This document shows, piece by piece, positions 35,624 through 40,769 of a stretch of 40,885 nt of DNA. Each line of letters begins with the position of its first letter. Position 1 is the stretch's first letter. Position numbers and translations under genes: made by a program. The DNA lies in contig CANOYI010000002.1 in assembly GCA_947571515.1 (NCBI GenBank), positions 1 to 40,885 of the forward strand. The letters are read 5' to 3'. This stretch comes from an uncultured Clostridium sp. Its GTDB lineage: Bacteria > Bacillota > Clostridia > TANB77 > CAG-508. A model generated the notes under the pieces. It had not been told where the DNA came from and searched no databases. It worked only from the letters and a program-made list of their open reading frames with translations.

Positions 35624-35674
35624 TGTTTCGTTTATTGCTCCTTTTATTTTATCATTTAATTTATTTTTACTTCA

Positions 35675-35703
35675 TTGACAAAGAAAGTAAAATATTGTAT
35701 ATT
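35675..35703 (+). promoter_or_regulatory. promoter of toxin mRNA 1
   Basis: TTGACA, 17 nt, TATATT. Confidence 0.7.
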
Positions 35704-35740
35704 GTACTTGCCTTTCTACAAAGGTAGAAAGGAGGTACAT

Positions 35741-35809
35741 ATGAACAACTTCTTGAAATTGCTAAAACTTTATTTGATTTACTTAATTGTAAAACATTTA
35801 AGTGATTAG
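35741..35809 (+). CDS. type I toxin-like 22-aa hydrophobic peptide (module 1)
   Basis: MNNFLKLLKLYLIYLIVKHLSD. AGGAGG lies 5 nt upstream and is partly buried in the 9-bp hairpin cctttctac/gtagaaagg (35711-35732). Confidence 0.65.
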   Translation: MNNFLKLLKLYLIYLIVKHLSD

Positions 35810-35814
35810 CAAAG

Positions 35815-35887
35815 AAAAAAGACTAGGTATGCTTGCGGCTCCTAGTCTTTTTTTATACATATTGAACAACTTCTTTCGCAATTGCTA
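35815..35887 (-). ncRNA. convergent antisense antitoxin RNA 1 (predicted ~70 nt)
   Basis: The minus-strand promoter is TTGACA (35916-35921), 17 nt, TAATAT (35893-35898). It shares the bidirectional terminator gactagg...cctagtc (35815-35854). Its 5' end is complementary to the toxin start region 35737-35762. Confidence 0.6.
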
Positions 35888-35972
35888 ACTATATATTAGC
35901 ACATATTTTATTCTATGTCAAATAATGGATTTTATTCGTACCATTCGTTTTATTTAATTAATTTTTACTTTG

Positions 35973-36001
35973 TTGACAAAAAAAGTAAAATATTGTATAT
36001 T
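35973..36001 (+). promoter_or_regulatory. promoter of toxin mRNA 2
   Basis: TTGACA, 17 nt, TATATT. Confidence 0.7.
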
Positions 36002-36038
36002 GTACTTACCTTTCTGCAAAGGTAGAAAGGAGGTTTTT

Positions 36039-36107
36039 ATGAAAAACTTACAAAAGCTACTAAAACTTTATTTGATTTACTTAATCGTAAAACATTTAAG
36101 TGAGTAG
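36039..36107 (+). CDS. type I toxin-like 22-aa hydrophobic peptide (module 2)
   Basis: MKNLQKLLKLYLIYLIVKHLSE. Same RBS-hairpin arrangement as module 1, with one G-U pair. Confidence 0.65.
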   Translation: MKNLQKLLKLYLIYLIVKHLSE

Positions 36108-36114
36108 CAAAAGG

Positions 36115-36186
36115 AAAAAGACTAGGAAAGATTTAGATGACTCCTAGTCTTTTTTACTTTATGAAAAACTTGCTTTGCAATTGCTA
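36115..36186 (-). ncRNA. convergent antisense antitoxin RNA 2 (predicted ~70 nt)
   Basis: The minus-strand promoter is TTGACA (36215-36220), 17 nt, TAATAT (36192-36197). It shares the bidirectional terminator gactagga...tcctagtc (36115-36155). Its 5' end is complementary to 36036-36049. Confidence 0.6.
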
Positions 36187-36280
36187 ACTATATATTAGCA
36201 CATATTTTATTCTATGTCAAATAATGGATTTTATTCACCAATATGAAACAAATAAGTCCTTCCCCTTGTCCTTGTTTCAC

Positions 36281-36790: not shown

Positions 36791-36884
36791 TTTATTTTCC
36801 TCATTTCTTCATTTTCTTAATCCATATTTTTCAAACTATCTGTATTATACCAGATTTTGCCTACTAATTCAACACTTCCTTTTA

Positions 36885-37125
36885 TTCAAGTTTCGACTTT
36901 TTGCAATTGAGGGGTTGTAATATATCATTTTTTTACACTTTGTGTGTCGCAACCTTCCTTTATTAAGAAAGGTTGGTTGCTCCAATGCTACTTGCTTTGC
37001 TCGTTTTGCTGTCCACTGTTAAAGCTTTGCTTGTTACAGTGGCAGTATGCAGTAGCTGGTCGCTTACGCAGTGTTGCAAAAATGATATATTACAACCCCT
37101 CAATTGCAAAAAGTCGAAACTTAAA
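36885..37125 (-). mobile_element. apex-core element, copy 3 (inverted orientation), 241 bp with ~48-bp terminal inverted repeats and a 9-bp flanking direct repeat
   Basis: A 45-bp perfect IR runs 36888-36932 and 37078-37122. TTCCTTTTA occurs at 36876-36884 and again at 37126-37134. The core is the reverse complement of copies 1 and 2. Confidence 0.75.
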
Positions 37126-37158
37126 TTCCTTTTAAGTTCATTTTTCAGAAACCAATAC

Positions 37159-40100
37159 TTACACTTCTATCTCTTTTCCCAAAAAAGTCGAATAAATAAA
37201 CACATGATTCACTTTTTTATGCAAAGCATTTTCTAAAGCCCTTTGGTACAATTCCAATTGTTTTTTATACTTATCTACTAACTCTTGTTCTGTTTGAACA
37301 AAATCTGTCTTGTAATCCACCAAAATCAGTTCATCTTGTCCATTGATATAATACAAATCAATCATTCCCTGTACCAATATGTTTTCTGGCACATCCTCTT
37401 GATAAACCTCTTTGGCTGGTATCGTAATATAAAACGGTTTTTCTTTCTGAATTTCTTTAGCTTGTTTTATATCTTGCCAGATTTTTGACTGTGTAAATTT
37501 TAGAACAGCAGTTGGATTAATATGATCTGCCTCTTTTGAAGTAATCATTTCTTTGTCCACCATATCATGAATTAATTCTTTTACCTTCTCTAAGGTATAT
37601 TCAATTTTTTCGTCTAATTTTTGCATACATAAATGTAATAGTGTTCCTTTCTGTGCTCCTGTAAGTTTAATTTCCTTCTCTTGCTTTGTAAATTTAGGAG
37701 CTGGAAAACTAACTTCAATTTGTTCTTCTTCTCTTTGTTTTATCTTCGTAACAGAAGATTTTGTAGGGATTTTAGTGGATAACTCATAAGCATAGGTATC
37801 CTTTAAGGTACTTGCTATTTTAGCTATTTCTTCCTCATCTATTTTATGTTCTTCCATCATCTCTAATAAATTGATATTTTCTTCTTCTCTTTTTTCGCAA
37901 AAATCTAGTACGTCCTTTTTCGTATAGGTCTTTAAGTCTACTATTGTCTCAACTTGTGACGGTTCATAAAAATACACTAACAAAATCCAATCGATATATT
38001 TGATATACTTTTTCACTAAAATGGGATTGATTTTTTGATTTTGTTTTTGATATCTCTCAATTTGCTGCAACAGCTTTTCTTTCTGTTTTTCAAAATCTTT
38101 TTTGATTCCTGTTATAATAAGTTTTTCTTTGGCTCTTGTCAAAGCAACATACAAGATTCTCATTTCTTCTGATAAGGTTTCTATAAAAGTTTGATTGCGA
38201 ATCGCTCTTTTGCTCAATGTATCATATTGTACTTGTTTTTCATAATCAATATATTTCACACCGAATGCCTAATTCTTGATGTAACAATATATTTTGATTT
38301 AAATCCATTAGATTAAATTGTTTTCCTGTGCTTGCTAAAAACACAACTGGAAATTCTAGCCCTTTACTTTTATGAATACTCATAATTCTAACAACATTAT
38401 CATTTTCTCCTATGATTTTAGCAGCTCCCATATCTCCACTGCTTAATCTTAGTTTTTCGATAAAATGAATAAAATTGTATAATCCTTTAAAACTTGCTGT
38501 TTCATACTGTTTGGCTCTTTCAAACAACATTCTTAAATTTGCTTGTCGCAATTGTCCATTTGGCATTAAACCTGCATAATGATAATATCCTGTATCAGAA
38601 TAAATTTTCCAAATCAACTCATCTAATGCTAAATATTCTTGTTCTTTTCGCCATTGTGCTAAACTTTTTAAAAAGTTTTCTATTTTATTTTTTAAATCCT
38701 TCTCTACAGAAAGCTTGGCTTTTTGTAAGCAAGCATAAAAGTTATCTTGTTTGTCTGCTAGACGAATTTGAATTAGTTCGTCATCAGTAAATTTGCCAAT
38801 ACTAGACCTCATAACCGTTACTAATGGAATGTCTTGGATTGGATTATCAATAATTTTTAGTAAACTGATTACAGTCTGAATTTCAATGGAATCCAAATAT
38901 TCTTGTGAACTGTCGGAAAATACAGGCATTTGCAAATTCAATATTTCTTGTTCATAGAGCGGTGCTACATTGCTAGTACTTCTTAATAAAATTACAATGT
39001 CTTTATATTGAAGAGCTCGATATTTCTCTTGTTTTTTGTCCCACACTTGAAATTTATTTTCTATTAATTTCTGTATTTTATTGGCTACAAATTTAGCTTC
39101 TAACTCTACATCTGCTATATTTTCTTCTTGCTGTTCTTTCCTTTCTTCTGTTGTTTCTGTTGGTTCTTCTGCTTCCACTACTGTTTCTATTGCTTCTTCG
39201 GTTTCCTCCTCAGCCACAGAATCGATGACATGAATTTCGATTTTTTCATCTTGATTAATTTTGGGGTAATTTGCTCCCAAATTCAAAAATTCCTCTTCGT
39301 TGTAATGAATGTCTCCCAATGTTTTGCTCATAATATCTGCAAAAATTAAATTAGTAAATTGTAAAATGTTTTGCTTACTTCTAAAGTTTTTGAATAACTG
39401 AATTTTCAAGTCTTGTTCTGGTTCTTTTGTTTCCTTTTTTTGATAGGTTTCGTATTTATGTAAAAACAGTTCTGGCATAGCTTGTCTAAATTTATAAATA
39501 CTTTGCTTGACATCTCCTACCATAAAAATATTGTTATTTCTAGATATAGCAGTTAATATATATTCTTGTACCAGATTACTATCTTGGTACTCATCAATAG
39601 CGATTTCTTCAAATTTGTTTTGATATTTTTTTGCTACTTCACTCGCATTTAATAGGATGTCTAAGGCAAAATGCTCGATATCACTAAAATCTACGATATT
39701 TTTTTCTCTCTTTCGTTTCGTAAATTCTTTTTCAAATGCTAAAATTAGATTTTGTAATTTTACCAAAATCGGATACATATCATAAATATCTTGATTGGCT
39801 TCTTGTGAATTACAAATTAGTATCTTGTCCAATACTTTGGCTAATTTCTTTTTTACTTCATCTCTGATTTCTTTTGCCTTATCTTTGCTTTCTGATTCCA
39901 CCTTTTGTCTTGGCCAAGTTACAAATTTTAGGTTTCCGAGCTATTTCATAAGCTTTGTCCCAATGATTTAAGCTGTTTTTTAATTCTTCTAGTTGCTGGA
40001 TGTCACTTCTAATGGTTTGATAAAATTTTTCTAGTTCTGGTTCCTTAGACAAATCTTGTTTTACTTTTTCTAACATAGTAATATCATCGATTAATTCTTC

Positions 40101-40769
40101 TTTGACTTCTTGCAATAAAATATTCCCCCAAGATGTTTGACTAAAATCTTCTTCTAGTTTCCCATCTAAATTAAACATTTCTATTTTTTCTGATAACCAT
40201 TTTTGCGGAAATGGATTGCTTTGTATGTAAGAATGTATTTTTAAAACTAAATCTTTTAGTGGTGTGTCATCTCTGTAACTGGTGTATACATTGATTAATT
40301 TCGTAAAATCGCTATCCTCTGTTTCATATTTTTCTTCAAAAATGTCTTCGATTACTTCTTGTTTTAATAATTCCATTTCTGTTGTGTCTGCAATCCTAAA
40401 ATTAGGTGATATACTTTCTAATTCGTAAAAATTGTTTCGTACTACTTCTAAACAGAAAGAGTCAATGGTACAAATGTTAGCTTTGTTTAATAAGGTTACT
40501 TGCCTTTGTAAGTTTTCGTCTTCTGGGGTTTCTTCTAGTTTTTGATAAATGGCATTTAAGACTCTTTCTCTCATTTCGGATGCTGCACTGTTGGTAAAGG
40601 TTACGACTAATAGTTTGTCAATGTCTACTTTGTCTTGTATGATTTTGTTGATAATTCTTTCTACTAATACGGCTGTTTTTCCGCTTCCAGCAGCTGCTGC
40701 TACTAATATGTTGCTTCCTTTTTCGTAGATGGCGTCTTGCTGTTCTGGTGTCCAGTTTACTTGGCTCAT
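37159..40769 (-). pseudogene. addA: ATP-dependent helicase/nuclease subunit A (AddA), interrupted by two frameshifts
   Basis: Three consecutive overlapping ORFs of 296, 551 and 366 aa. Together they contain AAAGSGKT, DEYQD, UvrD-type helicase motifs and the RecB nuclease motif LVDYKTD. Confidence 0.85.

Follow-up and report, generated by a model that had tools for sequence, protein, structure and literature searches.

Tandem par-type cassettes with 22-codon reading frames form a widespread family of putative type I toxin-antitoxin modules in uncultured gut Clostridia

The window analyzed here, a stretch of 40,885 nucleotides from an uncultured Clostridium sp. (contig CANOYI010000002.1, positions 1 to 40,885), carries two direct repeats of ~298 bp among ordinary chromosomal genes coding for an RqcH/NFACT protein, an MFS transporter and AddA. 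Each repeat holds one small module, composed of a promoter, an open reading frame (ORF) of 22 codons, a terminator that can be read from both sides and a convergent promoter on the opposite strand. A repeat finder aligned 35654-35820 with 35952-36118 at 87% identity and 35811-35937 with 36110-36236 at 82% identity, the two modules being spaced by 298-299 nt. We consider it probable that each repeat functions on its own as a type I toxin-antitoxin-like cassette, with a predicted toxic product and predicted transcripts under RNA control of the par type, and we are highly confident that its RNA architecture is real.

Module 1 begins with a plus-strand promoter, TTGACA-17-TATATT, at 35675-35703 (score 11/12). 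It is followed by a 5' stem-loop at 35706-35736, which includes an optional outer helix (35706-35709 with 35733-35736) and whose core arms, cctttctac and gtagaaagg, occupy 35711-35719 and 35724-35732 according to both folding and the repeat finder. The core hairpin takes in the AAGG of the Shine-Dalgarno sequence AAGGAGG, and the whole stem-loop sequesters GGAGG (35731-35735). The ORF, with an ATG at 35741 and 22 codons plus stop extending to 35809, encodes MNNFLKLLKLYLIYLIVKHLSD and belongs to a family conserved at the codon level. The region from -4 to +25 of its start codon (35737-35765) is one copy of a repeat and the predicted target of the antisense 5' tail; acatatgaacaacttctt at 35737-35754 recurs, with one extra T, at 35857-35875, inside the downstream copy (35857-35888) that would serve as template for that tail. 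Between ORF and downstream copy lies an intrinsic terminator usable on both strands (35814-35855), made of an A-run, the stem agactagg/cctagtct with arms at 35815-35827 and 35841-35853, and a T-run. The antisense promoter, TTGACA-17-TAATAT, runs on the minus strand from 35921 to 35893 (10/12, with an extended -10 TG) and would produce an antisense RNA of ~75 nt covering 35812-35886, both ends being placed from promoter and terminator. In the predicted fold of this module, TTGCTAA at 35760-35766 also pairs with TTAGCAA at 35806-35812.

Module 2 has the same order: a plus-strand promoter TTGACA-17-TATATT at 35973-36001 (11/12), a predicted 5' stem-loop over the Shine-Dalgarno sequence at 36009-36030, an ORF of 22 codons plus stop at 36039-36107 that encodes MKNLQKLLKLYLIYLIVKHLSE, and a terminator for both strands at 36113-36156 with arms at 36115-36127 and 36142-36154. 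In the downstream repeat copy (36158-36187), tttatgaaaaactt of 36036-36049 is found again at 36158-36171. The minus-strand promoter TTGACA-17-TAATAT extends from 36220 to 36192 (10/12, with TG), and the antisense RNA predicted from it, again of ~75 nt, would span 36110-36185, with ends placed as in module 1. In both modules the terminator stem is perfect over 12-13 bp. An earlier note on this DNA, made from its letters alone, had described the two repeats with one module each, the plus-strand and the convergent promoters, the hairpin burying four nucleotides of the Shine-Dalgarno sequence, the 22-codon ORFs, the bidirectional terminators and the translation-start repeats at 35737/35857 and 36036/36158; all of them were found where it had placed them.

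Promoter hexamers alone prove little in DNA as AT-rich as this (26-32% GC), since the total of promoter-like sites in a 4-kb scan did not exceed that of shuffled sequences (29 versus 22.9 +/- 4.7); the top two of the 29 sites are the plus-strand promoters of the two modules (11/12). AT-rich DNA is equally rich in short ORFs, and in principle the peptide could be an accident of composition within repeats that are really a non-coding element (REP- or MITE-like, a terminator cassette or a leader-peptide attenuator), a reading to which we give very little credence for the reasons that follow. Compared with shuffled sequences, the predicted toxin mRNAs fold far better (z = -6.8 for module 1 and -6.3 for module 2), and the predicted antisense RNAs have folding z-scores of -3.2 (module 1) and -3.5 (module 2). 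The decisive evidence that the cassette goes beyond chance is the recurrence of its whole layout in 42 independent loci.

A degenerate DNA pattern for K-phi-phi-K-phi-Y-phi-phi-Y-phi-phi-phi-K-H was used to seek these relatives in species-representative genomes; it fixed K6, K9, Y11, Y14, K18 and H19 and required T as the middle base of the hydrophobic codons. The pattern returned 45 loci, and the complete cassette is genuine in 42 of them, from 39 genomes, all of which are assemblies of uncultured Clostridia, Clostridium sp. or Eubacteriales; several isolate names indicate human, mouse or rabbit samples. The cassette is thus widespread in uncultured gut Clostridia, in at least 39 genomes. Loci L012, L022 and L041 and the viral loci L051 and L052 were rejected as chance pattern matches, devoid of Shine-Dalgarno sequence, ORF and remaining architecture. 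Other routes were less productive: a 44-residue TTG-extended ORF used as query found no homologous protein, contigs retrieved with the flanking 157-residue gene were identical to the window and uninformative as relatives, Rfam gave no match for the locus at gathering thresholds and chance-level matches only at E <= 10, and full-text literature searches for peptide fragments found no paper. Plasmid and phage collections likewise contained no relevant match with the module DNA or with the peptide by tblastn, so that carriage of the cassette by mobile elements is unsupported.

The 43 loci whose surroundings were examined (the 42 relatives and the window) show 48 different clusters of flanking proteins; no particular downstream gene goes with the cassette, which is therefore autonomous. 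Profile searches revealed tandem copies elsewhere, two in each of L010, L020 and L033 and three in L028, tandem duplication being a recognized trait of type I loci (PMC2887945). L034 and L027 have three copies, including more divergent peptides of 22-24 residues and a 30-residue relative, MTLLKILLKIMAIVVDLIVLVLELIEHLHK, with unchanged layout. The modules for this longer relative are arranged in tandem and lie beside a 22-residue module (L034, 7373-7634 and 7710-7960; L027, 5605-5735). In one copy of MTLLKILLKIMAIVVDLIVLVLELIEHLHK, the ATG is one base out of frame within a run of seven T, which could reflect a slippage-prone tract or a decaying copy.

In every genuine locus the ORF has exactly 22 codons and a fixed stop position. 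The 39 distinct ORF sequences are preceded, 5-12 nt upstream, by a GGAGG-type Shine-Dalgarno sequence and start with ATG (22), TTG (10), GTG (5) or another codon (2). Within the core, codons 6-20, third positions vary at all 15 sites and second positions at none, and pairwise codon differences are 3455 synonymous versus 908 non-synonymous. The peptide consensus is MK[E/D/N]L[L/I]K[L/V]LKLYLIYLIVKHLx[D/E], whose core LKLYLIYLIVKHL stays almost the same in at least 39 species as synonymous sites change. Judged by its codons, the 22-codon ORF behaves as a translated gene: length, Shine-Dalgarno spacing and stop stay fixed while third positions change and ATG, TTG and GTG replace one another, which is hard to reconcile with a spurious ORF. 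An attenuator is ruled out because the downstream neighbor differs among loci and the convergent promoter faces the ORF, and a MITE-like nature is opposed by the lack of terminal inverted repeats and target-site duplications around the cassette. Across the family, by eye, a GTG codon for Val7 tends to accompany a CAC codon for His19, and Leu7 codons to accompany CAT, an association that may point to an intramolecular helix formed within the coding sequence.

The control elements are conserved along with the ORF. The toxin promoter matches at least 10 of 12 consensus positions in 39 of the 42 distinct modules, and the antisense promoter 10-12 of 12 in all 42, mostly with an extended -10 TG. Downstream of the ORF every module shows the same succession of terminator, copy of its own translation start and minus-strand TTGACA-17-TATAAT-like promoter. 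The 5' hairpin was assessed by folding each sequence separately with the Shine-Dalgarno sequence as anchor; this replaced alignment-based folding with MAFFT and RNAalifold, which had given no 5' helix and in which the 5' arm was misaligned. Pairing of at least AAAGG of the Shine-Dalgarno sequence is predicted in essentially all modules, and the closing CC/GG pairs, in columns anchored on the 3' arm, are found in 34-36 of 39 distinct sequences. Compensatory double changes occur at two positions of the stem, one with U-A in 29 sequences and C-G in 8, the other with A-U or G-U in 19 and G-C in 7. The order of A-run, stem and T-run recurs in nearly all family members. The terminator stem GACTAGG/CCTAGTC is almost invariant across species, with a hypervariable loop. 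Since a stem needed for termination alone would be free to co-vary, this sequence itself may be recognized by something. The same stem stands in the window at 35820-35848 and 36120-36149.

If the antisense RNA acts on the toxin mRNA, their contact sites should bear the mark of common evolution, and the earlier note had indeed pointed to parallel change of each start region and its downstream repeat. Every translation-start region was therefore paired by RNAduplex with every antisense 5' tail. Mean predicted duplex energies were -24.5 kcal/mol (sd 4.0) for cognate and -11.1 kcal/mol (sd 4.4) for non-cognate pairs, and the cognate antisense ranked first for 31 of 39 toxins. Since cognate duplexes are far stronger, start region and downstream repeat evolve in concert, which fits selected complementarity. 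For the window, predicted binding of the full-length RNAs was -44.1 (T1-A1) and -47.0 kcal/mol (T2-A2) within modules and -11.7 (T1-A2) and -9.8 kcal/mol (T2-A1) after swapping. The 5' contact alone gave -31.8 to -32.5 kcal/mol for T1-A1, -15.2 for T2-A2, -18.7 for T1-A2 and -8.3 for T2-A1. In these models each toxin mRNA of the window would prefer its own antisense RNA, and antisense 2 could also touch mRNA 1.

Segment-wise identity between the two window modules shows that their differences cluster in three patches of RNA-RNA contact: the translation-start region (65% identity), the terminator loop (36%) and the downstream repeat (69%). The toxin promoter with the 5' hairpin (93%), the rest of the ORF (92%) and the short 3' stem with the T-run (86%) are much more alike, and the antisense leader with its promoter is 100% identical (59/59; 35879-35937 versus 36178-36236). 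Because the tandem modules differ almost only in the contact patches, each antisense RNA would be largely specific for its own mRNA. Within the identical 59 nt, at the predicted start of antisense transcription, lies the palindrome GCAATTGC, which might be an operator or a dimerization site; another subfamily has GACGTC at this place.

The history of the pair can be approached through three syntenic loci, L018, L019 and L031, which carry one module each, between the same MFS-transporter gene and a gene for a protein of 154/157 residues. This module is of the module-2 type and encodes the same peptide as module 2. The additional module is thus specific to the lineage of the window. Its start region, of the NN type, resembles those of L013 and L035, and these sequence similarities suggest an older lineage whose flanks were homogenized with module 2 rather than a fresh divergence from module 2.

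Par-like loci are defined by convergent promoters, a bidirectional terminator and direct repeats that are read both ways and sequester the initiation region, and further by a 5' stem-loop over the Shine-Dalgarno sequence, an upstream helix and, in some loci, a U-turn motif in a loop (PMC7472228). Four of these features are present in our cassette: convergent promoters (predicted), a shared terminator, direct repeats read both ways and the Shine-Dalgarno stem-loop. The par locus of Enterococcus faecalis pAD1 (Fst, RNA I/RNA II), as well as its chromosomal homologues (parEF0409, SprA1/SprA1AS and Lpt), share with it the convergent promoters and the bidirectional terminator with complementary 3' stem-loops (PMC7472228). 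As in par, a direct repeat is transcribed both ways, the antisense 5' end pairs with the toxin initiation region and a stem-loop covers the Shine-Dalgarno sequence; the RNAs are small (here ~150 and ~75 nt, as predicted), and the interaction sites are poorly conserved between paralogs, which would give specificity (PMC7472228). Unlike par, the cassette has one interrupted repeat instead of clearly separate DRa and DRb, and a separate 5' upstream helix was not found in the predicted folds. The Shine-Dalgarno hairpin begins at, or within ~4 nt of, the predicted +1 and, in these models, could do the job of that helix. The terminator loops contain YUNR-type motifs, CUUG in loop 1 and UUUA in loop 2, of which chance alone would give ~0.6-0.8 in loops this large; not every par homologue has the YUNR U-turn motif (PMC7472228). 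The hosts also differ, being here uncultured gut Clostridia with no plasmid copy found. The assignment made by the earlier note, par/Fst architecture without membership in Fst, therefore holds, and the relatives in 42 loci agree with it.

This common regulation raises the question of whether the peptide itself is related to the Fst/Ldr superfamily, whose toxins combine a transmembrane helix, a P/D/S/T-XXX-G(C) motif, a conserved Trp and a charged C-terminal tail, and among which Fst needs two charged N-terminal residues for toxicity (PMC7472228). Apart from the identical RNA-level architecture (PMC7472228), such kinship would be supported by the MK[D/E]L with which most members begin, like pAD1 Fst, by the charged residues that most members have at positions 2-3 (K/R at position 2 in 35 of 39 sequences and D/E at position 3 in 30 of 39, compared with N-N in module 1 and K-N in module 2 of the window), by the 30-residue peptide of related modules with the same layout, and by Fst-like sequences reported from Clostridiales (PMC2887945). 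By contrast, the peptide has 22 residues where Fst and its relatives have about 30-35, with a run of 8 apolar residues and no long apolar helix. The 29 aligned peptides have no Pro and no internal Gly (a Gly occurs only at position 21, in some), hence no PXXXG-type motif, and they lack the conserved Trp and the charged C-terminal tail, their C-terminus being only K-H-L-x-[D/E]. The same 29 peptides matched no Fst model and no toxin family of Pfam-A or NCBIfam at E <= 10, and no Rfam antitoxin family was matched. We therefore regard a relationship with Fst/Ldr as improbable. The sequences most likely represent a previously undescribed toxin family, not recognizably Fst, under par-type RNA control.

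Other type I systems resemble the cassette in different respects. The ibs/sib modules of Escherichia coli also encode a very short toxin, occur as tandem or multiple intergenic copies and have paralogous antisense RNAs that tell their own mRNA by short variable recognition domains (PMC8309996, PMC2887945). Unlike in our cassette, Sib RNAs overlap the whole ORF, with no direct-repeat device, Ibs peptides are uniformly hydrophobic and the hosts are Gram-negative. With IbsC of 19 and ShoB of 26 residues (PMC8309996), a length of 22 is short yet not unprecedented among type I toxins, so that the unusual shortness claimed by the earlier note applies within par-like loci and not to type I toxins in general. 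From the same host class, Clostridia, come the Clostridioides difficile modules such as CD2517.1-RCd8 and CD0956.2-RCd10, which also consist of convergent overlapping genes with toxin genes missed by annotation (PMC6563280). Their toxins, in contrast, have 34-59 residues, an N-terminal transmembrane domain and a Lys-rich tail, with no sequence similarity to the 22-residue peptide; their antisense RNAs overlap the mRNAs at length, which suggests mRNA degradation, and the modules lie in prophages or beside CRISPR arrays. To our knowledge, these are the only characterized type I modules in Clostridia. Earlier surveys had found only few Fst- or TxpA-like sequences in Clostridiales (PMC2887945).

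From this anatomy we infer the transcripts with their ends, translational repression, toxicity and targeting of the membrane, in the following scheme. A sigma-A-type promoter would yield an mRNA of ~150 nt, the first nucleotides of which would fold into the hairpin that buries the Shine-Dalgarno sequence, keeping translation low and probably shielding the mRNA 5' end. The convergent promoter, of equal or greater strength, would produce the antisense RNA of ~75 nt. Because both RNAs would end at the same bidirectional terminator, the 3' ~45 nt of the antisense RNA are perfectly complementary to the terminator hairpin of the mRNA, the likely site of first contact, loop to loop. On the mRNA, the start codon and the codons just after it are complementary to the antisense 5' tail, which would block initiation. 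Upon a fall of the antisense RNA, the 22-residue peptide would be made and, by analogy with other type I toxins, would act on the membrane and arrest growth.

The peptide has a net charge of +2 to +3. Its N-terminal half is amphipathic, with K2, K6 and K9 on one helical face and a hydrophobic moment (muH) of 0.53-0.63 over residues 1-11, and is followed by the apolar core LYLIYLIV (8 residues) and then K-H. In sequence it is more reminiscent of cationic amphipathic membrane-active peptides than of a simple transmembrane anchor, and any such mode of action is a proposal. Several observations weigh against the toxin-antitoxin reading. A canonical transmembrane segment is absent, as the longest apolar run has 8 residues, compared with 15 in Fst and 16 in IbsC, and Lys6, Lys9 and Lys18 interrupt the helix. 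A functional anchor is lacking in the databases: in addition to the toxin families of Pfam-A and NCBIfam, a PDB sequence search with the peptides gave no match, nor did Rfam provide one. For a type I toxin, the peptide varies unusually little, which could mean a specific non-toxic role. Part of this apparent invariance is ascertainment, because the search pattern fixed six residues and the middle base of the hydrophobic codons. The pattern did not impose ORF length and stop, Shine-Dalgarno sequence or start-codon interchange, nor did it dictate which of F, L, I, M and V was used, a choice that is nearly invariant. Finally, in the 5' contact alone antisense 2 is predicted to prefer mRNA 1 slightly to mRNA 2, and some cross-talk may occur; for the full-length RNAs, the comparison of cognate and swapped pairs proposed by the earlier note came out in favor of specificity.

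In an alternative reading the product is not a toxin and the cassette is an antisense-tuned gene for a small protein, either a conserved membrane or regulatory peptide with a specific partner or an amphipathic one that is exported and acts on other cells in the manner of phenol-soluble modulins or PepA1. Near-invariance of the core across 39 species would suit such a role, type I toxins being generally little conserved (PMC8309996), as would the absence of a canonical transmembrane stretch together with the cationic amphipathic N-terminal helix, and the chromosomal position of the loci, with no plasmid or phage copy found. Yet three layers of repression with very strong convergent promoters, and likewise tandem amplification with insulated paralogs in many unrelated neighborhoods, are hallmarks of type I loci (PMC7472228, PMC2887945), and in the 43 neighborhoods the cassette has no linked genes for export or modification. 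We thus judge a non-toxic product unlikely, and retain the toxin-antitoxin-like cassette as the preferred reading. In a more speculative reading, to which we give a fairly low probability, the 22-residue peptide would found a toxin or small-protein family without kinship to Fst, its action depending on a specific, conserved partner and not on generic membrane insertion. In favor of this reading, the core LKLYLIYLIVKHL is very little changed and the peptide has no apolar stretch of transmembrane length.

Two further features lie downstream of the modules. At 36884-37126, between the 157-residue gene and the AddA-like gene, there is a 243-bp element with 49-nt inverted repeats, 98% complementary, whose arms are separated by 145 nt; the element has no match in Rfam and looks like a MITE (miniature inverted-repeat transposable element) or possibly an invertible segment. 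Its arm motif also flanks a shorter element (L031, 1239-1424) directly beside a toxin-antitoxin module and is present in L001 and L002. The AddA-type helicase-nuclease itself, on the minus strand at 37159-40769, is divided among three overlapping ORFs (37159-38259, 38246-39901 and 39879-40769) that jointly carry consecutive UvrD and PD-(D/E)XK domains; this split implies two frameshifts, which would mean that the gene is a pseudogene or that the assembly contains errors.

Gene callers do not see ORFs of 22 codons, and the cassette belongs to a family that is widespread and unannotated in uncultured gut Clostridia; our searches of protein, RNA and literature sources gave no record of it. With this family, the par type of regulation is seen to reach a peptide without the Fst signature. 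Its ~40 natural cognate pairs, with tandem paralogs that differ almost only in the contact patches, constitute a ready data set on the specificity of RNA-RNA recognition, and the mode of action of so short and nearly invariant a peptide, cationic and with many Tyr and Lys residues, is worth testing. If this peptide does act through a conserved partner, par-type RNA control would amount to a portable chassis for regulation, here joined to an unrelated effector.

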